Below the pieces are notes generated by a model, which did not search any database, was not told the DNA's origin, and worked only from the letters and a program-made list of their open reading frames with translations. The position numbers were made by a program, and so were the translations under genes. From a phage, in sequence record PX880101.1: DNA of 64,000 nt, one strand, 5' to 3'. Numbering within the stretch: the first letter of the stretch is position 1; each line of letters starts with the position of its first letter. Shown one piece after another: positions 9,601 to 35,984 of the stretch.

Positions 9601-12328
9601 AATTCCAGGGCCTGAAACTCTTGGTAATGCCGTTGATCCTTATATCATCATGACTGCGCTGAGATCAAACATGGACGGGACATCTATGTCTATGCAGATC
9701 CCAGTAACAAATGGGTACAAACGTGTCGTGATGATTATTAAGTGTGACTTAATAGGTAAACAAGTCCTTGCAGAAAACGGGACCTCCACACATCCTTTTG
9801 AAATTGCTCTGCACTATCAGTTTGCTGACTCACCTTTTTCAGGAGATAAGCGAATATCTGATACAGATGCGCAGCGTTGTAAGAAGGTATTGTTGGGTGC
9901 AGGTTGGTGGTGGTATGAATTTGATTTAACAGACAAATTCACCGACACGTCAAAAGTTGTAACAGGACTTCGTCTAGACCTTGGCGAGAACATGCACAAA
10001 GCTGTTTGTGATGGCACCTATGGTGACCCTACAGTATATCTGAAGTATGTCTCTTTTGAGCATCCGGAAGATGTTGTTTACGGTCCAAAACTGAGATTGT
10101 TTGGCAGTTGGATTGCAAAAGACAGGGTAGGCATGGGTAAAAAGGTAAGAGGGTTCTTGGTTGATGCAGGAACAGAAGACATGCTGGTTAATGCAGTGTG
10201 GCCTGAATTACCTGGGACTCAGTGGGATAACTCAGCCAAGTCTATAAACTGGTTCAACATTCACAGAGCTATGTGGACCACTAACTGCTATTTGTGGAGA
10301 GAGCTTAACGATCAGGCTTTTGGCTTCAGTAACGGCAGAAGGATGGCGATCATTTGCTGGACAACGCTGCAAAGATGTTATGACCATGACTACGAGATTG
10401 GGGGCAGGGCATGGAAAAACATCAGGGATAGAATCATAACCAATTTTGCAGACGACAACGGCGGTGGAGCACATAACTTCGGCACAAGTAGACTTATTCA
10501 CTTGAATGGGTCATCCGCGTATAAGAAAGAGGGTTACTCCGGATCCATGATCGAGTGGGGTCTGGTGAAAGATGCTCGCGTATTGATGGGTCAACAACTT
10601 GCTGCTGCAATAGGTCCTAACGCAGTGCAGTCTGTTAAGCCAGCGTGGTTCGATATACCAATATGGTCATCTGGAACACCGGGAACTGCGGCAATCAACC
10701 CTACCACGGGGGATTTGGAAATCTCTTGGGAGGACTTAAAGCAGGTTGGTGGCTGGGATAAGACAGGGTACCAGGTACAATGGTGGAGATCTGACGGATC
10801 GTTAGCAGCTGATGAGTTTGTTAAGGACAATTTCTACACTATGTCCTCTGCAAAAGCCCAGCAATTGTTTGGTCAGGCCACTCCGTCAACAATCACCATG
10901 TCTATGTGTTGTAAAGACAACAGAACTGGAGCTTTGGGACCAAGGGTTGCTAAAGTTTTCTCAGGTATTAAATGGAATCTCCCTGTTCAAAGTGTTTCAT
11001 GGAAGCAAATAGGTGATAACAAGCTACTGGTTACTCCCGCCTGCCAGTTCAACGCAACCCTCAACGTTGATCCGGCTGTTGCAGCAAACTCAGCTAAAGC
11101 TTCTGACTTCTCTGTGTCTAACACTGCCATGGCAGATGTGAGAAAGATTGATACACTGAATGCCAGAATTACCTGTAAAAACACTTATGGCACATTCCAG
11201 ATCATCAACAACTTCACAGATTCTGATTCTAAGGTAGTGAGGACAGCAAGCCAGACTATGCAGTTGGGAACTCTGGCATACTCTGCCTTGATCACTGAAC
11301 AATCTCCTACCCTTCAGGGTGGGGGTGTTGGTAAGTTGATCACAACACCTGTGTGGAAGCCAAATGAGTGGGTTGTGTTTGATTTGACTGTAGACTTCTC
11401 CAGTGACAATAACTGGACATGGGTAAGGAATTGCTTGTCACAGTTGATGGGTGGTCCAAGCTCTGTTAGTGATAGCCACGACTCTACTGACCCGAGCGTG
11501 TTCCAGGTGGGTAAAACTCACCCAGAAACTGGGGCACAGTTGCCTGACAGGAAGTATGCTTTGGTTTGCATCTCCAACGGCAAGGCAGATGTAACCTTCT
11601 CAGGGACACACGCATATAACGGCACTTACAACTTCTCTAAAAAGTACAGCCTCAAGGCAGGTAACATTGTAGATGAAGTTGGTGCGTTGTATAATCCAGG
11701 TAACGGCATAGGGATTGTGGGCGGTAAACTGCAGATGCAGGAACCTTCTATTACCCCTTCCAATGTGCCAGGGATTAGAAAGACTTGGGAAAGTAGTAAT
11801 ACTAACATTGCAACAGTGGATGCTACCACAGGATTGGTAACATTTAAAGCCCCTGGTAATGTCACTATAAAGTTTGTAGTTACGGATGATGCAGGCCGCA
11901 AAACGTCTTCAACATCTTTCACTGTCAGACAGATGGCACCTCAGTGGAGAATGTGGATAGGCACAGCAACAAACGGGGCATACCCTAATCCGGCAGGGAC
12001 TTCTGGTATGAAGACTTTCTCTACAAGCAAGCCGATGGAGTACGGCAGCGGTCCTAAGGTAGGGCAGATGGTGTACTTTGGTGCATATATTCCTGAAATT
12101 ATAGGGCTTCCGAGAAGTCAGCTTCAGTTGCTGTTTGGAGCTGGTGTTGACGAGCTTGCCACTTTTGGGTATAGCGACAACATCGAGGCTGCAAGGAGTT
12201 CCGGATGGGTAGGGTTCAGAATGGAGTCTGGAAAGGAAGGCAGGATTCTAGGGACAGCCTCTATAGGTGTTATGTTCCCTGGTGACCAGCAGTATCGTCT
12301 GGGAGCCTACGCGACTTTCTCTCTTTAA
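6695..12328 (+). CDS. giant virion-associated protein (1877 aa) with C-terminal Ig-like (Big_2-type) domain
   Basis: Uninterrupted 5.6-kb ORF, RBS ggag; Trp/Gly/Asn-rich, not coiled-coil biased; C-terminal segment ATVDATTGLVTFKAPGNVTIKFVVTDDAGRKTSSTSFTV resembles bacterial Ig-like domains; last gene of the structural block. Confidence 0.55.
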   Translation: MLPIPLLKLGRHFLDKRGGVKELAVLSYPIDNSDGTSTTVAYVNSLAILFDDGQLNITGYNKFGECRTGDRNPINYPSETAWNVDHVWRADRAFVIRTFDNQFFYIGCTAGLIGSTAAGGNDVCVNEWTPLPEQIVKGLHLDTHPERLVEVMGGINNTVWVIAEAEGTGILNLYGSGNNTYGSLHVDKNQHATPVKIGETSENPETGPWKNPSINCEVHDNSVIFGGPRGFWIAGYDFLRNNSRNTLVWPPAQITRDDLRGIPADEEWKGFMCGPNGAVVATQRMHRPDDQQLVNVFYGQNVWGDDTWRALNITYTHEVIMARGYGTSGIFFNNGTKQYRGFSRNLCNDIGAQSANNNPRADFVHYQALATAKYVEQRLPVSWTESVYFQGIHREGFLGTFTVVNGKLWWSGIPRGSFAGSNNLFGGRLNSQGFTEVPENWYKNVPVDSWGVDDIFDVNGVSSVSNIYIGDTVKMKLKPQPEGATFIIDKIELVNAAGTVVTDANYQFSTNWNHGGANEVVVTQYNRNVNRRGLYSVKITYHDKHGTGRTHTTRTLNWNTIVPAYPSDGKWHTVGRNKQFHVNDTVYFGLNGTQPAVEGDTSYMVRLHRMDAGSVTYDVTQEIYDQRRNTYNNLVQTQAVWEFNPNGRGGKMLQVNEQNGTSLTVHEHPDPWPDPGKPHPGARTLKIVSHDAGYFGIRWEATVRYADGTTNNIGITLGGTSEDSSLKIAYTPRGISIDNMDVVRNGYGDVNIKVTLGEHLGGERIIMYAFDHDPRTDGTYADQAWSYLISAPEPNTKEFYYGMKRDVCKKTGTHDWIAICVKDERTAWDEPVNRWFIGIPTRSDKYVEEYIVCMGGTNLNMCWNEDANKYSDYDYMRDYSCNQWFNQTGYANRQSRVNPAIFTDTQVFLTKQANEVQTFKNKYDPNKWFYNCYGAFFWGPGELPNGGSCFEAATYASDYIMGQVKKYKIIPGPETLGNAVDPYIIMTALRSNMDGTSMSMQIPVTNGYKRVVMIIKCDLIGKQVLAENGTSTHPFEIALHYQFADSPFSGDKRISDTDAQRCKKVLLGAGWWWYEFDLTDKFTDTSKVVTGLRLDLGENMHKAVCDGTYGDPTVYLKYVSFEHPEDVVYGPKLRLFGSWIAKDRVGMGKKVRGFLVDAGTEDMLVNAVWPELPGTQWDNSAKSINWFNIHRAMWTTNCYLWRELNDQAFGFSNGRRMAIICWTTLQRCYDHDYEIGGRAWKNIRDRIITNFADDNGGGAHNFGTSRLIHLNGSSAYKKEGYSGSMIEWGLVKDARVLMGQQLAAAIGPNAVQSVKPAWFDIPIWSSGTPGTAAINPTTGDLEISWEDLKQVGGWDKTGYQVQWWRSDGSLAADEFVKDNFYTMSSAKAQQLFGQATPSTITMSMCCKDNRTGALGPRVAKVFSGIKWNLPVQSVSWKQIGDNKLLVTPACQFNATLNVDPAVAANSAKASDFSVSNTAMADVRKIDTLNARITCKNTYGTFQIINNFTDSDSKVVRTASQTMQLGTLAYSALITEQSPTLQGGGVGKLITTPVWKPNEWVVFDLTVDFSSDNNWTWVRNCLSQLMGGPSSVSDSHDSTDPSVFQVGKTHPETGAQLPDRKYALVCISNGKADVTFSGTHAYNGTYNFSKKYSLKAGNIVDEVGALYNPGNGIGIVGGKLQMQEPSITPSNVPGIRKTWESSNTNIATVDATTGLVTFKAPGNVTIKFVVTDDAGRKTSSTSFTVRQMAPQWRMWIGTATNGAYPNPAGTSGMKTFSTSKPMEYGSGPKVGQMVYFGAYIPEIIGLPRSQLQLLFGAGVDELATFGYSDNIEAARSSGWVGFRMESGKEGRILGTASIGVMFPGDQQYRLGAYATFSL

Positions 12329-16584: not shown

Positions 16585-18066
16585 TTACTTAGCATACTCG
16601 ATTAATTCCACAGTTTTCCCAAAGCTCGGGATATAATTTTTATTATACCCTTCGGTGAGAACCCATAAAGTATCGTACTTTTTCCACTTGTTGTCAACAG
16701 CCTTTTGTTCAAAGTTATGCTCAAAGTATAGGTCGGTAAGGACGATGACATCTTTTGCATTCGGTATGTTAGCATCCAGATACTCGAACACGCAGGCGGC
16801 TGTTGTGCCCCATGTTGAGTGGACCTCATAGTTGATCATCTCATCGATGTTACCGCGAGTGTATACTTTAACCTCTCCAACCTCGGTTGACCAACAGAAC
16901 ATCGTAACCTTAAACTCTTTATACAAATTGCACAACCCGGTGATCTCATTGAACATTTTCTTTAAAGTTCTTTGCGAGATCGATCCAGAAACGTCCAAAG
17001 CCACTACAATATCTATGGTGTTTTCCGGATTACGACCAGGAACAATAACGTGTTGATTCTTGTTTATAGCTCCAACTTTTCGCATTGTGGTGGTCAAAGA
17101 CCCAGATCGGCGACCAGGTTTTCTGTAGGTTAGCTCGGCCTTTCGTTTAGACAACATACGTTGCTTAATAATATCTATATAGTTGATTACAGGCTTGCCT
17201 CTGTTTTTGACAAACTCGCGCACCGCCTCAGGGCAACGACCTCCTGAAGCTTGCATTGCTGCTTCCAACATGTCACCAGAGTCCTGCATGGCCTGATCTT
17301 TATCAGATTGACTGATTACTGGTTGCGGCTGATCATACCCCATAGCCTTTCCAAGATCATCACTAGTGCCACCGTTCCCGCTCATGTGATCATCGGTTTG
17401 TCGTTTATCTCCTTGGGAGTTCTCGCCTTTACCGTTCTTACTTTTACCGCTATTCTGATCTCTTTGTTTATCAAGAACTGCATAGACGTTTTCAGCAATC
17501 CATCCATGAAACTTCATGTCGCAGTAGCAACTAGCTAAGAAGCCAAAAGGCTTACCTTTTACGAACTCAGTGCTTTTCCCCTTCGGGAAGAAAACACAAG
17601 GAGGCTTGCTAAAGTCAACCACAAGACCTGTGTTGATAACGTGATCACAAGCAATATTGAACAGTTCCGGCTCAAAGCTTTTACCACGGACCAGATGATC
17701 ACAGATAATATGCCCCACCTCATGTGACAGAAGAAAGGCCACCTCTTTCACAGATTTTGGGGAATAGAAAACCTCAGCCATCTCAAACTGCTTGTCAGTC
17801 AGAGATGCTTTAAGAATGGTTTTACGCTCATCTGCCAACCCCATAATGAACTCAGGGCTGTAGTAGATGCGTTTATGGTCTGTTGCCATAGTGGAGCACC
17901 ATGTGTGGTTTTCTACGAACTGCAACCCTGACAACAGTGTGCCATAAAACGGCAGCTTTTCAAGAAGGTACATGCGAGCGGCCTGCAGCATTCGCAAGGC
18001 ATCATCTTTTTGTGCGGTAATGATTTCTGAACTTCTGCTATCCATTAAAACTCCAGAAGGGGCCAT
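16585..18066 (-). CDS. VWA-domain protein with N-terminal HExxH metallopeptidase-like domain (DUF2201-like, MoxR-partner type)
   Basis: HEVGHIICDH (HExxH) in N-terminal half; MIDAS-like DVSGSIS (DxSxS) in C-terminal half; annotated ATG lies inside a GC hairpin, an ATG at 18045 with RBS ggag is an alternative start. Confidence 0.6.
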   Translation of the reverse strand: MAPSGVLMDSRSSEIITAQKDDALRMLQAARMYLLEKLPFYGTLLSGLQFVENHTWCSTMATDHKRIYYSPEFIMGLADERKTILKASLTDKQFEMAEVFYSPKSVKEVAFLLSHEVGHIICDHLVRGKSFEPELFNIACDHVINTGLVVDFSKPPCVFFPKGKSTEFVKGKPFGFLASCYCDMKFHGWIAENVYAVLDKQRDQNSGKSKNGKGENSQGDKRQTDDHMSGNGGTSDDLGKAMGYDQPQPVISQSDKDQAMQDSGDMLEAAMQASGGRCPEAVREFVKNRGKPVINYIDIIKQRMLSKRKAELTYRKPGRRSGSLTTTMRKVGAINKNQHVIVPGRNPENTIDIVVALDVSGSISQRTLKKMFNEITGLCNLYKEFKVTMFCWSTEVGEVKVYTRGNIDEMINYEVHSTWGTTAACVFEYLDANIPNAKDVIVLTDLYFEHNFEQKAVDNKWKKYDTLWVLTEGYNKNYIPSFGKTVELIEYAK

Positions 18067-18073
18067 TGGCCCC
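18059..18073. other. intercistronic GC hairpin (ggggcc-att-ggcccc)
   Basis: Near-identical stem to the bidirectional terminator at 12341; lies between two leftward genes. Confidence 0.4.
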
Positions 18074-18078
18074 TGTCA

Positions 18079-19068
18079 TTATTTAACGTGCTTGAAAATA
18101 CCAGCCAACTCGGTCATTGTCATGCGAGTGGTCTTCATAAGGTCTGTCATAGCCTTCTCCATGATTGGAGACACTACCATGAAGTTACCTTTGGTGAAAC
18201 CTTTGTTCCAGTCGGTAACTAATAGGGGTTTAAGTCCGGCACCGAGACGTTCACCAGTTAAAGCACAACATTTTCGAATGTATGTGCTCTTAAACTGGCT
18301 GAATGACAGATCAACTTTCATACCTGCATCGTAGAACGTCTGGCAATAGAAAGTGTAAGCTTTGGCAATCTCAACATCGTCAGGCAGTGCAGGAACCTCT
18401 TCTGTAAGCTCTTCTTCGACTCCTTGAGGCTCTTTTTCCTCTTCGTAAGCCTGTTGCGTCATCTCTTCAATCTCCTCTACTACAGGCTCGTTTACAATGT
18501 CAGAAATGTGCTTGTTGGCTCCACGATTAGCCATGAAGTTTTTAAAATCCTGCATTGGTGACATATCTTCCTCCCATTCTTCGTCAAAGAGTGCTAGTTT
18601 ATCCTCTTCCGTTCCATATTGCAAGATGAAATCTTCAAAAGTGTAATCACCTTTCAATTTCTCCATACGCTCTTCGCTCAGGTGGAGCATCATCTGCTGG
18701 ACAATTTTTCGATCAGTTTTGTCTTTAATCAAGACTGCGGTCTTTTTATCTACCAGACAGTCCTTTAGGGAGTTGCATCTCAATCCCACCACACAACAAT
18801 TATCAACCGCATAAGGACCTTCATCATCTATCCGCTCCAGAGATGGGTAGAAAGGATTTCCCAGTCCGTTTTCATCTGTGTGCATGTCGAAAGGTATAAG
18901 GGTATAGTCGCATACTCCCTCTCCTAAAAGTTTTTTACCAAATAGGAGATATTCTTCCCATGACAGGTTGAACTCTATATCCCGTTTCCGTGCGTTATTC
19001 TGTTTGCGTCTGTATTTTTTGAGCAAGCGCTCTAACTCTTCTGGTGTATAATATTTTTCAAGATTCAT
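18079..19068 (-). CDS. hypothetical protein
   Basis: ORF is open to 19128 (TTG), but ATG at 19068 lies downstream of the leftward promoter at 19100-19129; acidic C-terminal half. Confidence 0.5.
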   Translation of the reverse strand: MNLEKYYTPEELERLLKKYRRKQNNARKRDIEFNLSWEEYLLFGKKLLGEGVCDYTLIPFDMHTDENGLGNPFYPSLERIDDEGPYAVDNCCVVGLRCNSLKDCLVDKKTAVLIKDKTDRKIVQQMMLHLSEERMEKLKGDYTFEDFILQYGTEEDKLALFDEEWEEDMSPMQDFKNFMANRGANKHISDIVNEPVVEEIEEMTQQAYEEEKEPQGVEEELTEEVPALPDDVEIAKAYTFYCQTFYDAGMKVDLSFSQFKSTYIRKCCALTGERLGAGLKPLLVTDWNKGFTKGNFMVVSPIMEKAMTDLMKTTRMTMTELAGIFKHVK

Positions 19069-19099
19069 GAGTTGTCTCTTGTTCTCTGTGGGTGGAGAA

Positions 19100-19129
19100 A
19101 TCTTACCAAGTGCCTGAGAAGATGTCAAC
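19100..19129 (-). promoter_or_regulatory. sigma70-like promoter for the leftward block
   Basis: On the minus strand: TTGACA (19129-19124), 18-nt spacer, TAAGAT (19105-19100). Confidence 0.45.
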
Positions 19130-19141
19130 CTGAAAAACGTG

Positions 19142-19170
19142 TTGACTTTACTCTAAATCCACGATATAGT
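19142..19170 (+). promoter_or_regulatory. sigma70-like promoter for the rightward replication block
   Basis: TTGACT-17 nt-TATAGT, 40 nt upstream of the first rightward gene; back-to-back with the leftward promoter. Confidence 0.5.
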
Positions 19171-19210
19171 GCACCCATTCAAAAGAAAACTAACATAGGA
19201 GCACTTACTC

Positions 19211-20110
19211 ATGGCAAATCTTAACAGTTTTAGCACCAGGTGGAAACAAGATATCACAACCAATCTCTCAGCAGGTGATATCCTTTCTGCAATTTACGAG
19301 GCTTTGGATGATAAAGCTACTTCAAAATCGGTTTGTACTAATCCGCTAATCCCTGTAGTGATGAAGGTAATTGAGCGGAGGTTGGTATCTGGGTCAGATA
19401 AGTGGACATACCTTGATAATGGAGGGCATACTTACTCCAACGGATATGTTGATATAAAAGTGGAACACGCAGTATCATACCGCCGGAGCGGTTCTGTAAC
19501 TTTCAACTTCTCTGGAGGTTTCCGATCTCTGGCAACTTCACCTTTTGTTTCCTCAGAGGAGAAGTATGAGCTGCCATTTCTTTGGATGATGGCTAACGCG
19601 ACAGGAAAAACCCCCGTTAGCATCCGAGTAAAATACAACTACAACGGATCTAGTAAGATCTATGCCGAGAGTGTCTCAGCAAGTTTTTATTTTGTGATGG
19701 GGGATGGAATCCTCAAACATATAAAGATGTGCGATATGCATGATGTTATAAATGAAGTGACTGATAAGAATGTCCTAGTGAAAGACCTCAATAATTTTTA
19801 TACACCTGGAGACTATTACGTCAACCGCCCACTGTGCATCTTTAATGCCGCACACCCTTTAGGTGAGTATTTGATCGCCAATAGCGATATTGCCAATAAT
19901 CGCTTCGAGGTAGCAAGAGTACAGAATGAGGTGTTGACATCTTGCAAGAGCGGTGATAAGTTTACCGAAGAAGAGATGGGTGTTTTAGAGATGATGGGAT
20001 ATAAGTGTAGCCTTTGGGTAGATGAGGTGTTTAATGACGGCATCTATGGACAGGATATTTACCCACTAAAGAAGTATACTGATTCCAGTTTAATTTACGC
20101 GGAGATTTGA
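19211..20110 (+). CDS. hypothetical protein
   Basis: 299-aa ORF, RBS aggag; first gene after the divergent promoters. Confidence 0.55.
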   Translation: MANLNSFSTRWKQDITTNLSAGDILSAIYEALDDKATSKSVCTNPLIPVVMKVIERRLVSGSDKWTYLDNGGHTYSNGYVDIKVEHAVSYRRSGSVTFNFSGGFRSLATSPFVSSEEKYELPFLWMMANATGKTPVSIRVKYNYNGSSKIYAESVSASFYFVMGDGILKHIKMCDMHDVINEVTDKNVLVKDLNNFYTPGDYYVNRPLCIFNAAHPLGEYLIANSDIANNRFEVARVQNEVLTSCKSGDKFTEEEMGVLEMMGYKCSLWVDEVFNDGIYGQDIYPLKKYTDSSLIYAEI

Positions 20111-20385
20111 CTATGATGAAGTCATGTGGTAGTGTATATTATGTTGGTGAGAATGTTCAGGCAGATAGTGTGTGGAAATCCATTAAGTCCACCACCGATG
20201 ATGCCTTCTTGAGCGGGTTATGTTTCCCCAATCCTGGGGACATTCTCCCTCACCCTGGGGATTTTGTTGTCAACAAGACAGACGGTTATACCGTGTGCCT
20301 GATGGTTGAAAAAATCTTTTTAGACACTAGACACAATCACCGTCTTGTGCTAAAATTTCAAGAATGTAAAATGACAGTTGCCTAA
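20107..20385 (+). CDS. hypothetical protein
   Basis: 92-aa ORF, 4-nt overlap with upstream gene. Confidence 0.45.
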   Translation: MTMMKSCGSVYYVGENVQADSVWKSIKSTTDDAFLSGLCFPNPGDILPHPGDFVVNKTDGYTVCLMVEKIFLDTRHNHRLVLKFQECKMTVA

Positions 20386-20397
20386 GGAGGCCTATCA

Positions 20398-20754
20398 ATG
20401 TCTAAAGTTACTTATCGTGCAGCTATTTACTGCAATGAGCAACCAATCAATAGTGATGGTCACTGCTTTTTTAAAGAAAATCAGTTGGGCTGTATTGCCC
20501 TCCCTGATGAAGGGGAAGGTTATATGATTGCATTGACAGGGTTTGAGCCTGAAGCCTTGGAAGCCAATCTGGACTACCTGGTAGAGAAGGGTGCTGCAGA
20601 CTTGGTTGCCAATGGCCTCTCCATAAGCCTTGAAGAAGTGGAGCGCTTCATGGGCAATTACCGTGTAGTGCGTGAGTTTACTGTCGAGGTGGAAACTCCA
20701 GAGTGGGGTGGTACTGAAACTAATGCCGAAGAAAAAGAAGAGGAGGCAGAATAA
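20398..20754 (+). CDS. acidic hypothetical protein
   Basis: 118 aa, RBS aaggagg; strongly acidic C-terminal tail (EEKEEEAE). Confidence 0.5.
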   Translation: MSKVTYRAAIYCNEQPINSDGHCFFKENQLGCIALPDEGEGYMIALTGFEPEALEANLDYLVEKGAADLVANGLSISLEEVERFMGNYRVVREFTVEVETPEWGGTETNAEEKEEEAE

Positions 20755-21011
20755 TGAAAGTGCAAATCTTAACTAATGCCGAGAAGATGTTTATCGAAGA
20801 TACGCCTTTTGAAACTGGTGAGCTACAGTTTGTATATTTTGTTGACTTAGATAAGGTTTTTCCTGCGCTGAATTTGGGTTTGGAGAAAGTACCTTATAAA
20901 ACTCTATGCCAGGTTGTCCGTGCCTTAGCGGCAGATGGAGAGTTCCACACCTTTGAAGATATCCAGACCTATGGGTATCTTGAACTGCAACGAGAAGAAG
21001 AGGTAGACTGA
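20754..21011 (+). CDS. hypothetical protein
   Basis: 85-aa ORF, RBS gaggagg, start overlaps upstream stop. Confidence 0.5.
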   Translation: MKVQILTNAEKMFIEDTPFETGELQFVYFVDLDKVFPALNLGLEKVPYKTLCQVVRALAADGEFHTFEDIQTYGYLELQREEEVD

Positions 21012-21013
21012 TA

Positions 21014-21394
21014 ATGGCCCAGTGGAAGACAACAGTTGACCTTCATGATCAGTGGTTAGGACGCATAACTGAAGACGGGAAACTGGTAGAGTGGGACAAC
21101 AAACATGTTAGCGAGTTGGCAAGTATTGTGGCTGGCAAGTTACGCTCCAAGTTCCCTGAACAGCTGGATCCTGATAGTTCAAAGTTCGATCCTGAGTTGG
21201 AGGATGTTGTATACTACTTCGATACCGTTGATGACTACGACGCGTGGTTTGCAGCACGGGAGCTTTACCCACAAGGCTCTGCTATGCGCAAGATGGAAGA
21301 AGATTATCCTCCGTGTGAGCAATTCAATAGTGCAATGACTTGCCTCTATGATTGGGCAGATAAGAACCTTGTCTGGATTCGGACTGCATTTTAG
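21014..21394 (+). CDS. hypothetical protein
   Basis: 126-aa ORF, RBS agagg. Confidence 0.5.
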   Translation: MAQWKTTVDLHDQWLGRITEDGKLVEWDNKHVSELASIVAGKLRSKFPEQLDPDSSKFDPELEDVVYYFDTVDDYDAWFAARELYPQGSAMRKMEEDYPPCEQFNSAMTCLYDWADKNLVWIRTAF

Positions 21395-21438
21395 TGGGTA
21401 GGGATGGCGGCAAGGATGCTGCTTAAGGAGCAGTAGAG

Positions 21439-21708
21439 ATGTTATACCAGCAGTACGAACTTCGTGCAGAAAAAGAATTAAATTTTGACAAAGATATTCA
21501 CAGATATTATTATGGGAAAGTTAGAGGGCAAGCAAGAAAGTGTACTCCAACACTCTTTTATGCCAGCAGACGACTAGCGCCAGAAGAGGCAACAGCAGAA
21601 AGGGTTGCATATGGCTGGAGAGTTGCGTATGATATTGACAGATCCGATGTGATGTCTGTTTTGGAAAACTTTGAAAACACTTACACACAAGTAGAGGACT
21701 TTTACTAA
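21439..21708 (+). CDS. hypothetical protein
   Basis: 89-aa ORF, RBS aaggag. Confidence 0.5.
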   Translation: MLYQQYELRAEKELNFDKDIHRYYYGKVRGQARKCTPTLFYASRRLAPEEATAERVAYGWRVAYDIDRSDVMSVLENFENTYTQVEDFY

Positions 21709-22892
21709 TGTCAAGAAACGTATTCGAAAGTGGTCAAATCACTGTCCGCGAGTTGCCAGCTATTATTCAATTTGCCCAGCGTCATAACCGATCTGTCCTG
21801 ATTTTAGGACCGATGGGCGTGGGGAAGAGCCAGGTGATGAAGCAGATTGCTGATAATATGTTCGGTGAGCGAGATGACAACCTGGTTGACGTGCGGTTGT
21901 CAGATAAAGATCCTGCTGACTTATCTGGGCTACCTATCCCTGTAGAGTCGGATGGGACTACACGCACAGTGTTTGCAATTCCAGAATTTTGGCCTGCAGA
22001 TCCGGACTGGAGCGGAATTATCTTTCTAGATGAGCTTACTCATGCAGATAACTACCTGCAGAAGGTTGCAATGCAAATTATGCTCGACCACAAGTGCGGC
22101 ACCTATGCATTTCCTAAGGGCTCTGTTTTTGTAGCTGCAGGTAACCGTGCTACAGACGGTGCTGTTCTTTCGGCGCTCGAAGCTCCTCTAGCTAACCGCT
22201 TTATCATTGTAGAAGTTACAAGCAGTGCAGAGGTGTTTATTGAGGACTATGCATTCCTTAATGGGGTGCACTCCTCGGTAATTGGATATCTGAAAAGAGT
22301 CCCATCAGCCATCGATAATTATGAGGCCATGGCTGAGATTAATTGTCCATCTTTTGCTACACCGCGATCTTGGGTTGCTGCATCTGACATCCTGCACGAT
22401 TTTGACAGCGGTATTATTTCTGACGCTATGACCCGTGTCCTTCTACAAGGTGCAATTGGTCACACTGCAGCGGTAGAAATTTGGACCTACCACACCAAGA
22501 AACGAAACTTGCCAGAAATCGGTCGGATTATGGCAGGAGGCTGCAAAGAATATGTAGGTCCTAAGCAGCCAGACATCTTGTGGATTCTGGGGTCTGAAGG
22601 TTGTATCGCTATTCGTAATATGATGGAAAATGCAAGTATCTCCGACGAAGATCTCGTCAGCTGTGTGGCAAACTTCCTTGATTTCCTTTGGGAAAATTTC
22701 AAGGATGAGAACCGAGACTTTGTATTCTCAGTCTTTATGGCGATGATGAAACCTAACGCCTTAGGAAATGCCTTGCTTATTGGTAAAGGCAGGGACAAGA
22801 TCGTTGCTCAGCTGATCAAAGCATACCCAAACCTGATGAAGATTGTAAAAGAGTTTGGTGAAGAGTTTAGCGCCATTTTAGCTAAAGCTTGA
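21708..22892 (+). CDS. MoxR/AAA_5-like AAA+ ATPase
   Basis: Walker A ILGPMGVGKSQ, Walker B IIFLDELTHA, sensor-1-like AAGNRATDG; 394 aa. Confidence 0.65.
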   Translation: MSRNVFESGQITVRELPAIIQFAQRHNRSVLILGPMGVGKSQVMKQIADNMFGERDDNLVDVRLSDKDPADLSGLPIPVESDGTTRTVFAIPEFWPADPDWSGIIFLDELTHADNYLQKVAMQIMLDHKCGTYAFPKGSVFVAAGNRATDGAVLSALEAPLANRFIIVEVTSSAEVFIEDYAFLNGVHSSVIGYLKRVPSAIDNYEAMAEINCPSFATPRSWVAASDILHDFDSGIISDAMTRVLLQGAIGHTAAVEIWTYHTKKRNLPEIGRIMAGGCKEYVGPKQPDILWILGSEGCIAIRNMMENASISDEDLVSCVANFLDFLWENFKDENRDFVFSVFMAMMKPNALGNALLIGKGRDKIVAQLIKAYPNLMKIVKEFGEEFSAILAKA

Positions 22893-32930: not shown

Positions 32931-35360
32931 ATGAGCATGTGGTCGTTCGATTTTGAGTCATCCGGTTTGCTGGAAGACCCAGATCTTTATTATCACTGCG
33001 GTCTGTTTAAAGAGCTGAATAAGAACCGTTTTATGCTGTTCCTTCCTCTAAATGACCGCACACACTACTCCGAGGAGGATATAGAAAAGGCTAAGAACTT
33101 CATTCTGGCAAAGAAAACTCTTTATAAAGATTTTGAAGTTCGCATAGCAGATTTTTCGGAGTTGGAAGGTTGGCTTACAGGCAATTCCGACTGGTCACCA
33201 ACAGCTTTGAACTGCCATAACTGCTACAGTTATGACTTTATGCTGATGGAGAGATTGTCCGGTATTCATTTTGATATGTTCCGTGATCCTAAATGCATGG
33301 GGACTATCAACGACCACCAGGTTAACCTGTTTGATACGTTGGCGATGAGCCGAATTTTGTGGCCTGATCGCCCTCTACCAAAAGGTTGTCCGGACGCTGT
33401 ATTCAACCCGGTTACTAAGAAAATGCAGCCTGTTGGTCCTCACGGCCTTATGGCATGGGGCTACGCCCTTGGTAACCAGAAAGTTCAAATTGATGACTGG
33501 CGCGATCTTCCGTTGTGGAAGTATGTGGATCGTGTATTCGAGGACGTTATCATCCAGGAGCTGCTCTGGAAAGAGCTGGTAGCGGAATCAAAAGGTGTAT
33601 TCTACGGCAAATCTGACATGCAGAACTTTATGTACGATCCTGCCAAAGAGAAGCCGAAAGGGTTCAAGAAGATCACCTGGAAGAACGCATTACGCCGGGG
33701 TATGCTGCAGCACTTCCTGATGGAGCTGCAGGCCCGTCAGGGTGTATATTTCGACATAGATGGAGCTATTGCTTTACGTGACCGTTGTGATGCGTGGATG
33801 AAAGAGATCGCTGATCGTGTTGAACCTCAACTTCCTTTAAAAGAGTTGTCAATGTCTCAGCGGCCCAAGTTCCCTGAAAAGCCGTTTAACCAAGATGGGA
33901 CAATCTCCAATAATGGTTGGAAATGGTTAAAAGATAAGCTTGGCTATCCTGTGGACATGAGCGCTTTAGAGTTCAAAGCCCCACCTAAGCGAGCATTTAC
34001 CTCCACAGGGGATGTCAGTAAGATGGGGATAAAATGGTGTGAAGAGATGGGCTGTAAAGACCCTGATAAGATGGCTGATTTCTTGAGGGGCTATATTAAG
34101 GGCACCTCCACACCACAACCTTTACCTAAAGAGCTAATGGATCAGGCAATAAGTGATCTACAGCAGAAGCGAATGCCTGACTGCAAGATACCTATGAAAA
34201 TCAGCAATCAGGACGACATTAAGCGATACCTGATCAGTGCTGGTTGGCTTCCGACAATGTGGAGAACTAAGGATGTAACTAAAGACAGCAAGAAGAAAGC
34301 TCTACCTGATGCAGATGTTGATGCACGAGTATATGCATATATGGACGAGCTTTTAGAGTCAGAGTATTGTGACCTGATTATCAACTTCTGGAACAAAACT
34401 GATGCTAAGTTCCAGACAACCGTGCACAAGTTCCGAAGCTTTCCTAACTCCGAAAGGATTAAAAAGGAAGTATTCGGGAAAATACGTAGAAAAGCCAGGG
34501 CACTTATTACTTCTCCGCAACTGAAAGATACGTTTGGACACCTATGTCCGAATCTTGAAAAATTGAACGGAGAGATGGCTAAAGATATCGTCTTGTGGTT
34601 ATCCTTGCGAAACCGCAGATCGGTCCTTGATCCAATCAAGGAGGATAAGGTTGATACTGGTCTTCTTAATCACCCACGTTTGAAGATTGACCATAAGCTT
34701 CCTGCTAAAAGTTCTGGATTAACAAACACTTCCCGACAGAAACACAGTATTTGTGCGAACATGCCTAAACCATCTCCTAAAGTGGTTATGGGTAAAGAGA
34801 TGCGTAGTCTGTGGGGTGTTCCTCCAGGATACTTTGAGATTGGTATTGACGGGTCCAACTTAGAGCAGCTTATCGGGGCTTGGGGTGCCTTTGAGTTCGA
34901 CAACGGCTTGTATTATGATGTTGTAAGTAACGGGGACGCACACCAAAACAATGCTGAGGCATATACAAAAGTAGCAGGTAGAGAGGTGTCTCGTAACGAC
35001 GGTAAACCTATCACGTATGGGGTTATGTATGGGGCACAAAAAGATAAAGTTGCAGATATGCTGGACATCTCTCCAGAGTTGGGACAAAGGGTAATCGATG
35101 CACTCTGGGATGCCAACCCAGGTCTTAAGGGGCGCAAAGAGGATCTGGAGAAATTCTGGGAAGCAACAGGTAAGAAGTTTATCTACTCTTTTGATGGTCA
35201 TGCTATCTGGACCCGATCTAAACACTCTTTACTTAATGCATACCAACAAAATGGCGGTGCATCGTTGTGTGACTTAGTTGGAATACTCATGCACCACCAG
35301 ATGGTGAAGCGTGGGTGGTACGATGAAGGTGTTCGTCGTATTATTTATTACCATAAATAA
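32931..35360 (+). CDS. family-A DNA polymerase, 5' exon with 3'-5' exonuclease and polymerase motifs A and B (inferred splice donor after 35354)
   Basis: Exo I FDFESSGL; motif A IGIDGSNLEQL; O-helix region RNDGKPITYGVMYG; the ORF stops at …RRIIYYHK* exactly where motif C (HDE) should follow. Confidence 0.75.
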   Translation: MSMWSFDFESSGLLEDPDLYYHCGLFKELNKNRFMLFLPLNDRTHYSEEDIEKAKNFILAKKTLYKDFEVRIADFSELEGWLTGNSDWSPTALNCHNCYSYDFMLMERLSGIHFDMFRDPKCMGTINDHQVNLFDTLAMSRILWPDRPLPKGCPDAVFNPVTKKMQPVGPHGLMAWGYALGNQKVQIDDWRDLPLWKYVDRVFEDVIIQELLWKELVAESKGVFYGKSDMQNFMYDPAKEKPKGFKKITWKNALRRGMLQHFLMELQARQGVYFDIDGAIALRDRCDAWMKEIADRVEPQLPLKELSMSQRPKFPEKPFNQDGTISNNGWKWLKDKLGYPVDMSALEFKAPPKRAFTSTGDVSKMGIKWCEEMGCKDPDKMADFLRGYIKGTSTPQPLPKELMDQAISDLQQKRMPDCKIPMKISNQDDIKRYLISAGWLPTMWRTKDVTKDSKKKALPDADVDARVYAYMDELLESEYCDLIINFWNKTDAKFQTTVHKFRSFPNSERIKKEVFGKIRRKARALITSPQLKDTFGHLCPNLEKLNGEMAKDIVLWLSLRNRRSVLDPIKEDKVDTGLLNHPRLKIDHKLPAKSSGLTNTSRQKHSICANMPKPSPKVVMGKEMRSLWGVPPGYFEIGIDGSNLEQLIGAWGAFEFDNGLYYDVVSNGDAHQNNAEAYTKVAGREVSRNDGKPITYGVMYGAQKDKVADMLDISPELGQRVIDALWDANPGLKGRKEDLEKFWEATGKKFIYSFDGHAIWTRSKHSLLNAYQQNGGASLCDLVGILMHHQMVKRGWYDEGVRRIIYYHK

Positions 35361-35630
35361 CATTGTGGCTTCATAGAGTAATCTATGTCGAATAACCTCT
35401 TTAACTGCGGGAAGCCTAAACCTTATGGCAAGGTAATCCGCAACGAAGCGCTCAAAAGAGCGAACGCTCAGAGGCCATTCCGAAAGGAAGTAGACCAGCA
35501 AGTGCGGTCGAAATGGGAGGATTCCTGTGGTTGCTTATCATAGGAATATGAGATGGTCCGATCCTACGTGAAAACGTATGGCTATGCACGTAAAGGTGCG
35601 GGGTAGCTTAACGACCTACCTGAACTATTG
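35355..35630 (+). ncRNA. group I self-splicing intron (276 nt, no internal ORF) within the DNA polymerase gene
   Basis: 5' exon ends in U (35354), intron ends in G (35630); guide sequence CAUU|GUGG (35361-35368) pairs with both exon ends; P-like CUGCGGGAAG (35405-14), Q-like AAUCCGCAACG (35435-45), P7 GACCA (35493-97) with UGGUC (35554-58); splicing restores …YYH-DEYQLQV…. Confidence 0.7.
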
Positions 35631-35984
35631 GATGAGTACCAACTTCAAGTCCCTGACACACCGAAGTATAAGACTGTGTACACCTTCGACACAATCGAAG
35701 AACTGGAAGCATTTAAGGCAGAGCAGGAGGCCAAACTTCATGTGTTCGACGGTCATAAGTACAAAAAGGCACGCAAGGATGAGGACGGAAACGAAGTGGT
35801 TGACAGAGACGGAAACACGGTGTACGATCCTATCCTGAATGATGACGGAAAGCTTGAACTTATCTGGAGCCCTGTGGGTGAAATGGTGGTGCATTGCTTC
35901 TGGCAAGCTTCTAAAATGATGGGCGTCCCGTTCCAGATCACAGGTGAATACTTGTGTGGTCGTAATTGGGGTGATTGTCACTAA
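35628..35984 (+). CDS. family-A DNA polymerase, 3' exon with motif C and C-terminus (coding sequence inferred to begin at 35631)
   Basis: Begins DEYQLQV (motif C HDE after joining to exon 1) and ends …GRNWGDCH, resembling the T7 DNA polymerase C-terminus …GPNWAICH. Confidence 0.7.
   Translation: MDEYQLQVPDTPKYKTVYTFDTIEELEAFKAEQEAKLHVFDGHKYKKARKDEDGNEVVDRDGNTVYDPILNDDGKLELIWSPVGEMVVHCFWQASKMMGVPFQITGEYLCGRNWGDCH

Follow-up and report, generated by a model that had tools for sequence, protein, structure and literature searches.

The rV5-like E. coli phage analysed here (a 136-kb, non-jumbo myovirus, of which a 64-kb stretch, the window, was studied) carries one copy each of two genes predicted to encode a known two-protein machine, an ATP-driven ring and a partner with VWA and zinc-protease-like domains, whose role is a prediction. 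The identification is carried by family membership, by intact and invariant catalytic residues, by conserved pairing of the genes and by their genomic position. We consider it rather probable that the genes encode two halves of one machine of the N4 gp24/gp25 type, acting by remodelling and cleavage of a target. The module is already known, as gene names stand in GenBank records and Iyer et al. 2021 (PMC7824862) described, in group 2.2 jumbo phages, a MoxR-vWA pair carrying an N-terminal metallopeptidase. It is distributed across N4-like phages, jumbo phages, cyanophages and bacteria; a literature search found no experiment on any family member, and mentions of DUF2201 were never functional.

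An earlier, sequence-only reading of this DNA had proposed a MoxR-type ATPase at 21708-22892 (plus strand) and an HExxH/VWA partner at 16585-18066 (minus strand), its observations being partly confirmed and its interpretation partly supported here. Both open reading frames exist, the start at 18066 being probably 21 nt too long, and translation recovered all of the quoted motifs (Walker A, Walker B, AAGN, HEVGHIICDH and DVSGSIS), far above chance expectation.

The ATPase gene

The ATPase gene (21708-22892, plus strand; 394 aa), a homologue of N4 gp24, begins with an ATG overlapping the stop of the preceding open reading frame (TAATG) and matched PHROG 1297, 'ATPase', at 2.4e-110. Pfam searching, which had been suggested as a check, left it under every gathering score (AAA_5 16.9 bits, cut-off 22; bpMoxR 15.7 bits, cut-off 27), so the MoxR assignment rests on its relatives and on predicted structure. 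Among 60 relatives, AAA_5 and bpMoxR were each found in 36 and AAA_3 in 33, and the family profile matched the AAA domains of midasin at 7e-12. The AlphaFold model (pLDDT 88) gave NorQ and CbbQ as best Foldseek matches (E about 1e-8, sequence identity 16-21%), and together these data support membership of the MoxR class.

The motifs of the class are intact, with key residues invariant in the diverged relatives. On the plus strand these are Walker A, GPMGVGKSQ (21807-21833; G37, G39, K40 and S41 invariant), Walker B, IIFLDELTHA (22017-22046; D108 and E109), sensor 1, AAGNR (22134-22148; N146 and R147), PLANRF (22185-22202), whose invariant R164 is the putative arginine finger, and TPRSW (22359-22373; P219 and R220 invariant), whose R220 is the putative sensor 2 arginine. 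The position of PLANRF agrees with the placement of the MoxR arginine finger N-terminal to strand 5 (PMC7159879). The model shows a pre-sensor-1 hairpin and a helix-2 insert with a beta-hairpin (residues 63-90, 21894-21977; DSSP assigns strands to residues 75-81 and 84-90; R63, L64, D71 and G74 invariant), which, by analogy with NorQ (PMC13036017), would be the pore element touching the VWA partner. An all-helical C-terminal extension (residues 271-394, 22518-22889) lies beyond the fold alignments with NorQ and CbbQ (about 270 columns), giving the phage protein an additional helical tail of 120 aa relative to them. N4 gp24 (28% identity, E 3e-29) aligned as far as residue 360, including part of this helical domain, and relatives ranked P0039 and below covered only about 85% of the query.

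The peptidase-like VWA partner gene

The partner gene, a homologue of N4 gp25 on the minus strand, most likely starts at 18045 (16585-18045; 486 aa) within a frame open to 18066. The ATG at 18066 is disfavoured because it sits in a perfect hairpin and lacks a Shine-Dalgarno sequence, whereas that at 18045 is preceded by GGAG 5 nt upstream and agrees with the start in those annotated public records that were inspected and in the closest protein cluster (486 aa each). This GC-rich hairpin, AGGGGCCAATGGCCCCT (18074-18058; local fold -18 kcal/mol, z -1.8), separates the stop codon of the preceding gene (18079) from the Shine-Dalgarno sequence and ATG of the partner.

The proposed HExxH and VWA combination was borne out, as the protein exceeded the Pfam gathering scores for DUF2201_N (E 1.7e-28) and the VWA-like DUF2201 (E 3.6e-11), matched PHROG 1314 at 7e-123 and was modelled with a pLDDT of 87. 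N4 gp25 aligned with it at 21% identity (E 3e-20) and itself matched DUF2201_N (3e-87) and DUF2201 (1.4e-46), with the rV5-type protein about 100 aa longer and bearing, at about residues 205-250, a Gly/acidic-rich insert modelled with low confidence. The zinc site, HEVGHIICDH (HExxHxxxxH; 17695-17724), has H115, E116, H119 and H124 invariant in 57 partner sequences, as is D141 (17646-17644). The N-terminal domain had no solved-structure relative among the matches listed; its assignment as a putative peptidase rests on its Pfam family and motif, together with weak HMM links of the HExxH helix to Peptidase_M48, SprT-like and M78 families. A linker with near-invariant R319 and R320 (17107-17112; family consensus RPxRR) leads to a minimal VWA domain of about 143 aa (16588-17016) with a complete MIDAS, D358-x-S360-x-S362 (DVSGSIS, 16995-16975), T421 and D445, all invariant.

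Conserved pairing and the divergent gene arms

The ATPase and the DUF2201 partner form a conserved gene pair, in keeping with the MoxR-VWA partnership that had been put forward: of the 146 loci that could be tested, drawn from viral contigs and bacterial genomes, 131 have a co-oriented DUF2201 gene as the next gene after the ATPase homologue. IMG/VR gave 64 such adjacent, co-oriented loci (12 further loci, where the contig ends at that point, fall outside the testable set), and GTDB genomes gave 67 adjacent pairs and another 8 in the same orientation with at most 9 kb between the genes. Adjacent pairs were also found in a Sulfurivermis chromosome, a Sulfitobacter N4-like phage, N4, cyanophage S-TIM66 and Asteriusvirus A4, where tblastn placed both homologues side by side (ATPase 24.9%, partner 27.7% identity). 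No ATPase-partner fusion was present among 184 proteins examined.

The split layout was seen only in the analysed phage and in a Klebsiella-phage relative, L009 (ATPase 53% identical, 147-kb contig). The ancestral layout is an operon of ATPase followed by partner; the lineages of rV5 and of the Klebsiella BIS47-like phages have the partner gene relocated to the other strand, and this splitting could have loosened the coupling of the pair. N4 has the two genes side by side in one orientation (9938-10996 and 11164-12306), whereas here they lie on opposite strands, 3.6 kb apart; N4 and the analysed phage are alike in having rIIA/rIIB a few kb downstream of the ATPase.

Between the two genes lie back-to-back sigma-70-like promoter matches (19100-19170), TTGACA-17-TAAGAT, which has an extended-10 TG, at 19128-19100 (minus strand) and TTGACT-17-TATAGT at 19142-19170 (plus strand), each agreeing with the consensus at 10 of 12 positions. 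In this region 20 consensus matches were found against 14 ± 4 expected by chance, and the hexamers are kept in four close relatives that are too alike to inform. These candidate promoters likely drive both arms. The sites claimed to be flanked by the pair are present, but the genes next to them are 18079-19068 (minus strand) and 19211-20110 (plus strand), the partner being the second gene of the left arm and the ATPase the seventh of the right. The first gene of the left arm, an 'anti-sigma factor' in public records (PHROG 3118), had no Pfam match and had homologues only in Vequintavirus loci and L009, and stands outside the conserved module. The right arm opens with six lineage-specific genes (19211-21708), the last of which (21439-21708) is translationally coupled to the ATPase gene, and continues into rIIA/rIIB, a RecD-like helicase, methyltransferases, a primase-helicase and a DNA polymerase. 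Hung off one such promoter region, the two genes are probably still co-expressed, early in infection.

Proposed mechanism and known relatives

We infer ring formation, ATPase-partner contact, peptidase activity and early timing, taking NorQ-NorD, CbbQ-CbbO and midasin as templates by analogy. The ATPase would form a hexameric ring, onto which the VWA partner would dock, touching the helix-2 inserts; the MIDAS would capture an acidic residue of the target protein, and ATP hydrolysis would twist or pull the partner. This would remodel the target and bring it to the zincin site, or would switch that site on, and the target would be cleaved. For NorQD, cryo-EM led to a 'finger-in-pore' model, which the authors of that work presume to hold generally for AAA+/VWA pairs (PMC13036017).

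NorQ-NorD and CbbQ-CbbO are CGN-subfamily MoxR ATPases with VWA partners, to which the phage ATPase is only 16-21% identical. NorD and CbbO are large, lack a zincin domain and have a 'finger' inserted in the VWA domain (PMC13036017), whereas the phage partner has a VWA domain fused to the HExxH domain and so small that there is no obvious room for such a finger. Midasin (Rea1), matched by the ATPase family profile, likewise has an AAA ring with its own MIDAS domain. It is a eukaryotic giant in which six AAA domains are fused in a single chain; it acts in ribosome assembly and has no peptidase. The ternary conflict systems (Kaur et al. 2020, PMC7159879), proposed to use a MoxR-vWA couple as an ATP-dependent switch in multicellular bacteria, are similar in fusing the vWA to an effector, sometimes a peptidase, but are defined by a third component (VMAP, iSTAND, FtsH or beta-propeller). 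No conserved third gene was found near the pair in the compared loci, and in a PADLOC scan the partner matched no defence system, while the P-loop matches of the ATPase were only marginal.

Weighing of alternative functions

It is quite unlikely, in our judgement, that the pair would serve as a virion-assembly chaperone and processing protease for head, tail or ejection proteins. Virion assembly was proposed for the jumbo-phage pair, which has equal domain composition and an inferred chaperone-cochaperone logic (PMC7824862), and a MoxR-VWA pair of Acidianus two-tailed virus is a precedent (cited in PMC7159879 and PMC9964418); structural genes flank the Asteriusvirus A4 pair, which directly follows a block annotated as structural, and roseophage virion-protein genes lie near gp24/gp25 homologues (PMC4193335). 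Here, however, in a non-jumbo phage, the pair is split and lies outside any morphogenesis block, in early and replication arms with sigma-70-like promoters, the ATPase arm running into rII and replication genes. N4 gp24/gp25, two of the 14 genes that make up the core of the N4-like phages (Schitoviridae), are middle rather than late transcripts (PMC4193335). The operon is moreover common in bacterial chromosomes that have no virion, beside NifQ-like, LRV-repeat and GGDEF genes, and its neighbours in S-TIM66, N4, loci L003-L007 and many IMG/VR contigs belong to nucleotide metabolism. In other phages the pair stands between a 5'-3' exonuclease and a thymidylate synthase or dUTPase gene. In the analysed phage nothing favours virion or tail maturation, which the earlier reading had raised, and gene context makes it somewhat more likely that the pair acts inside the cell at an early or middle stage, in taking over the host or in processing proteins of the replication phase.

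Such neighbours bear also on an unlikely reading of the pair as a chaperone for metal-cofactor insertion or enzyme activation, in which the HExxH..H motif might hold or hand over a metal instead of cleaving peptide bonds, and would do so for a metalloenzyme of the phage or its host, for instance one of nucleotide metabolism. NorQ-NorD inserts iron into NO reductase, CbbQ-CbbO activates Rubisco, and CoxD-CoxE is of the same metal or activation type; NorQ and CbbQ are the closest solved folds, and VWA_CoxE was matched by 32 of the 57 partner relatives. In Campylobacterota, the open reading frame immediately preceding the ATPase is NifQ-like (PF04891, 2.1e-19) in 26 of 80 loci, with an LRV-repeat protein in 38, while Sulfurivermis has a thioredoxin gene upstream of the ATPase and a ferrochelatase gene about 1.2 kb downstream of the partner (one gene between). 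In other phages the pair recurs near thymidylate synthase or ThyX genes. A single phage lineage and a single bacterial phylum, however, supply most of these neighbourhood counts; no metalloenzyme was found common to all phage groups with the pair, and the 64-kb window holds no thyA, thyX or dUTPase homologue. The glutamate of HExxH, in zincins the general base and not a metal ligand, is invariant in 57 of 57 sequences, which argues for catalysis.

That the genes no longer cooperate in this phage, having taken separate functions after the split so that their shared ancestry is only historical, seems very improbable. The opposite strands and the seven lineage-specific genes that separate them would fit such decoupling, but both genes are retained as single copies in the window with all catalytic residues intact, and the divergent layout is shared with the 53%-identical L009 lineage. 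Phage records by genus are near-equal for ATPase and partner (Escherichia 214/214, Pectobacterium 26/26, Cronobacter 17/17), and the two proteins diverge roughly in parallel, with nearest-cluster identities of 87, 72, 59 and 53% for the ATPase and 82, 62 and 47-48% for the partner.

The ATPase is a divergent member of the MoxR class

The ORF at 21708-22892 (+; 394 aa) was confirmed by translation as real, with all the motifs quoted in the sequence-only reading at their expected positions. That reading had assigned the product to the MoxR/AAA_5 ATPases, and the HMM searches run on this point gave a divided answer: direct matches to Pfam fell below the gathering scores (AAA_5, PF07728, 16.9 bits against a cut-off of 22; bpMoxR, 15.7 against 27), whereas relatives, family profile and predicted fold all indicated MoxR. 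Searches of Pfam, NCBIfam and PADLOC gave sub-threshold P-loop matches only, and phmmer against PDB sequences found P-loop matches to ClpB/ClpC only, so that these three further lines were needed to class the protein. Database searching found relatives with AAA_3 and AAA_5 domains at approximately 35% identity (E ~1e-45), and 60 aligned relatives, at E<=0.01, matched AAA_5 in 36 cases (best E 5.8e-10), bpMoxR in 36 and AAA_3 (PF07726) in 33. The ATPase also matched PHROG 1297 (E 2.4e-110), and the best PDB sequence match of its family profile was the midasin AAA ring (E 7e-12). With the predicted model, the top Foldseek matches in the PDB were NorQ (9qhg, 9qh4, 9qh7 and others) and CbbQ (6l1q, 5c3c), at E values of 9e-9 to 4e-6 and spanning about 270 residues, with MoxR-like CHU_0153 (2r44) likewise among the matches.

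Walker A (GxxGxGKS), Walker B (hhhhDE, D108/E109), sensor 1 (AAGN, N146), a putative arginine finger (R164 in PLANRF, N-terminal to strand 5), a putative sensor 2 (R220 in TPR) and four residues of the helix-2 insert region (R63, L64, D71 and G74) were all present and invariant in the 60 sequences. In the AlphaFold model (pLDDT 88), strand 2 and the Walker B strand are separated by a beta-hairpin that follows helix 2 (strands 75-81 and 84-90), and a pre-sensor-1 hairpin of two short strands (129-130 and 133-134) comes immediately ahead of the sensor-1 strand, both hairpins being read off predicted secondary structure alone. Helix-2-insert and pre-sensor-1 hairpins are hallmarks of the MoxR/dynein/McrB clade. 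A C-terminal helical extension of about 120 residues lies beyond the NorQ/CbbQ fold alignments (~270 columns), and the alignment with gp24 of phage N4 enters it, up to residue 360. We therefore accept the protein as a MoxR-class ATPase of a divergent subfamily.

Immediately upstream, an 89-aa ORF (21439-21708, +) ends in a TAATG that overlaps the ATPase start codon, an arrangement suggesting that the two may be translationally coupled. This ORF is itself named 'ATPase' or 'MoxR ATPase' in some records; it had no match in Pfam, and its homologues among the fetched loci were in Vequintavirus loci only.

The partner combines a zincin-like domain with a VWA domain

The partner gene lies on the opposite strand. 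Its frame, first proposed to span 16585-18066, is real, but the 5' end was corrected from 18066 to an ATG at 18045, the more likely start, giving a gene of 16585-18045 (-; 486 aa). The ATG at 18045 has a GGAG ahead of it and agrees with the start given in those annotated public records that were inspected as well as with the closest protein cluster, whose length is 486 aa; the ATG at 18066 is without a ribosome-binding site and falls in a hairpin loop. The hairpin is formed by a perfect 7-bp GC-rich palindrome (AGGGGCCAATGGCCCCT, 18058-18074; local fold -18 kcal/mol, z -1.8) that includes the in-frame ATG 18066, lies between the stop codon of the upstream gene and the partner's ribosome-binding site, and may have a part in mRNA processing, stability or attenuation.

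Translation upheld the HExxH and MIDAS-type motifs on which the sequence-only reading had relied, and the DUF2201 family it had named was recovered by HMM search, with both Pfam domains passing their gathering scores in N-to-C order: DUF2201_N (PF13203; E 1.7e-28, 100.4 bits against 23.2) and DUF2201 (PF09967; E 3.6e-11, 43.7 bits against 26.4). Both were matched in 57/57 aligned relatives, and the family as a whole comprises 27,005 clusters at 50% identity (E<=1e-10). In the predicted model (pLDDT 87) the N-terminal domain is helical, the C-terminal VWA domain is compact and has the Rossmann-like fold, and a Gly/acidic insert of low confidence occupies approximately residues 205-250.

The metal-ion-dependent adhesion site (MIDAS; DxSxS...T...D) is complete, D358, S360, S362, T421 and D445 being invariant in all 57 sequences, and is predicted to coordinate metal. 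In the N-terminal domain the HExxHxxxxH...D site is equally conserved (H115, E116, H119, H124 and D141 all invariant) among the 57 relatives, across which mean column identity is 29%; H124 and D141 are both candidates for the third zinc ligand. As the invariant residues include E116, the general-base glutamate of zincins, conservation argues for a working peptidase. Weak sequence links at the motif helix connect the partner to M48, SprT-like, M78 and minigluzincin-type proteins. VWA matches took up both lists in structure searches, leaving the N-terminal fold unplaced against solved structures among the matches listed; phmmer against PDB sequences gave no match. No biochemical data on DUF2201 members were found in the literature.

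The pair is an operon almost everywhere and is split in rV5-like phages

The expectation that the MoxR ATPase would be paired with a VWA partner was examined in 80 IMG/VR and 80 GTDB genome loci, fetched via the ATPase alignment, whose six-frame ORFs were scanned with HMMs from both alignments. The pairing was borne out, with the VWA partner adjacent and co-oriented in 131/146 testable loci. Among the viral (IMG/VR) loci the partner was directly downstream on the same strand in 64; a further 12 were untestable owing to contig ends, and 2 had no partner within the limited 1-1.6 kb available. The pair stood on opposite strands in exactly two viral loci: that of this phage and that of a Klebsiella BIS47-like relative (147-kb contig, ATPase 53% identical), which keeps the divergent layout. 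The GTDB loci, mostly Campylobacterota, had the partner adjacent in 67 cases, on the same strand within 9 kb in 8 and lacking in 1. Separate look-ups found the operon also in a Sulfurivermis chromosome, a Sulfitobacter N4-like phage, N4, Asteriusvirus A4 and cyanophage S-TIM66. Since the operon is so widespread, and the pair is still adjacent in a third viral locus (146-kb contig, ATPase 36% identical), the operon is the ancestral arrangement, and the split arose in the rV5 and BIS47-like lineages. No ATPase-partner (Rosetta-stone) fusion was present among the 184 fetched proteins; the 819-aa P0145 is no fusion and consists of the partner with a long low-complexity insert and an N-terminal extension. 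No gene family beside the pair was kept across lineages as a third component.

In the window, the two genes had been described as flanking a divergent promoter. Back-to-back sigma-70-like sites are indeed present (19128-19100, -, and 19142-19170, +; consensus matches only), and both the left and the right gene arms begin at these candidate promoters, but the direct flanks are other genes, the partner being second on the left arm and the ATPase seventh on the right. The flanking genes, 18079-19068 (-; public name 'anti-sigma factor') and 19211-20110 (+; 'putative alpha 1-3 fucosyltransferase'), both lacked a match in Pfam; PHROGs labelled HNH, endonuclease VII or Srd match the N-terminal ~100-210 residues only of the former. 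Genes between ATPase and partner are lineage-specific (Vequintavirus), as are the small ORFs around both, which had no match in Pfam. From the ATPase onward the right arm carries a cell-wall hydrolase, rIIA, rIIB, a RecD-like helicase, methyltransferases, a primase-helicase and DNA polymerase.

The pair belongs to one module with N4 gp24/gp25

N4 gp24 aligned with the ATPase at 28% identity (E 3e-29) and gp25 with the partner at 21% (E 3e-20), and in both phages the ATPase is followed, a few kb on, by rIIA and rIIB. The rV5-type genes, N4 gp24/gp25, the jumbo-phage pair and a cyanophage pair are one module. In N4, gp24 and gp25 are 2 of the 14 N4-like core genes, are given as 'unknown' and 'vWFA domain', and belong to the middle transcripts (PMC4193335; PMC2784036).

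The neighbours of the pair in other phages are genes of nucleotide metabolism and replication. A 5'-3' exonuclease lies upstream of the pair in 57/80 viral loci and thymidylate synthase 2.4-3.5 kb downstream in 26 of the 37 with enough sequence, both counts coming mostly from one lineage; N4, A4, S-TIM66 and one further fetched locus (L007) have neighbours of the same kind. We treat the thymidylate synthase link as context only, given this lineage bias and a window without such a gene. The S-TIM66 locus (156331-158966) reads Hsp20, 'MoxR-like ATPase' and an overlapping 'hypothetical protein', with ThyX 1.5 kb beyond; the overlapping protein, unannotated in the record, is a clear DUF2201_N plus DUF2201 partner (9.7e-28 and 9.2e-9).

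Possible mechanism and role of the module

By analogy, NorQ-NorD would be the best mechanistic template for the pair. In that complex the opening of the ring is occupied by the VWA domain, with a finger reaching the helix-2 inserts; ATP hydrolysis turns the domain relative to the rest of NorD, stretching a linker, and the authors presume that AAA+/VWA pairs work this way in general (PMC13036017). Building on the intact motifs, family assignments and gene pairing observed here, we infer a scheme of ring formation, contact and proteolysis of a client, in which the ATPase would form a hexameric ring and dock the partner, and the partner's MIDAS would grip a client protein by an acidic residue. 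Movement powered by ATP might then remodel the client, or expose and activate the zincin site, which would cut it.

A role in virion (tail or head) maturation, one of the options raised from sequence, has been proposed in print for the pair of jumbo phages (PMC7824862), and in A4 the pair comes after structural genes. We consider it less likely than an early or middle intracellular role, because of the nucleotide-metabolism and replication context and the occurrence of the operon in bacterial chromosomes. Metal insertion is a serious rival. In Campylobacterota (Sulfuricurvum, Sulfurimonas, Aliarcobacter) a NifQ-like ORF is directly upstream in 26/80 loci and an LRV-repeat protein (513 aa) further upstream in 38/80, and in Sulfurivermis thioredoxin is encoded upstream of the ATPase, and a single gene separates the partner from a downstream ferrochelatase gene. 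A dCache/PAS/GGDEF protein is also found downstream in 41/80 of the Campylobacterota loci, some of which have a second copy of the pair. The MoxR-vWA ternary conflict systems (VMAP/iSTAND/FtsH/beta-propeller) differ in having a third component, none being conserved here; a PADLOC scan of the partner gave no match, leaving a defence or counter-defence identity unsupported by this route.

Within the early or middle intracellular role, we put forward tentatively, and as rather improbable, that the gp24/gp25-type module is a novel two-component ATP-dependent protease, with the protease on a MIDAS-bearing VWA adaptor and not on the AAA+ ring or in a separate chamber. Early in infection, it would serve large lytic phages (N4-like, rV5-like, jumbo, T4-like cyanophages) in cleaving particular host proteins, defence or regulatory factors for example, or in processing phage proteins of the replication phase. 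If true, this would account for the place of the module among the few N4-like core genes.

Existing annotation of the module

Over the 7.5 kb around the pair, identity is 99.1% to Escherichia phage S127 BCL3 and 93-99% to more than 100 rV5-like phages (Vequintavirus). Deposited genes 99% identical to the ATPase and partner are already named 'MoxR ATPase', 'putative metallopeptidase domain', 'metal-dependent peptidase' and 'VWA-like domain-containing protein' in several records. Other records name the partner 'hypothetical protein', 'HNH endonuclease' (PHROG 1314 and RefSeq phage records, including N4 gp25), 'anti-sigma factor' (ECP32, S127 BCL3) or 'DNA repair ATPase' (Salmonella phage GEC_vB_MG). 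The last three labels are without domain support, the HNH and anti-sigma names deriving from PHROG 1314 and database propagation, and such widespread mislabelling hides the pair from annotation-based surveys. Sixteen records within MG065644-MG065677 ('Campylobacter phage A13b, A140-A147'), approximately 93% identical over the 7.5 kb, give Campylobacter jejuni as host, an odd one for an rV5-like coliphage.

Literature searches found no functional study of any module member, nothing linking rV5 and MoxR and no Vequintavirus time-course transcriptome; the CRISPRi-ART study was genome-wide for SUSP1, T4, T5 and PTXU04, with N4 and Vequintavirus not covered. Databases or print already contain the domain assignments, the pairing and the idea of virion assembly, and the sequence-only reading was a correct one of a known, uncharacterised module. 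The present analysis adds the unification with N4 gp24/gp25, the near-universal operon with the rV5-like lineage as its exception, the corrected start codon and the misleading partner labels. With about 27,000 partner clusters, almost always in an ATPase-then-partner operon, experiments in N4 or an rV5-like phage would give a very large family a function.

Other features of the window

A GC-skew strand switch at about 12-20 kb agrees with the divergent arms, and a search for tRNA genes across the 64-kb window was negative. A complete group I intron (RF00028; 35345-35580, +; Rfam 64.7 bits, E 4e-14) lies at the 3' end of the family-A DNA polymerase ORF (32931-35360; 809 aa), and a 118-aa ORF just downstream of it (35628-35984) may be a second DNA polymerase exon. 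Conservation of the intron region is 98-99% in rV5 and relatives; RefSeq gives two 'DNA polymerase' features for these phages.
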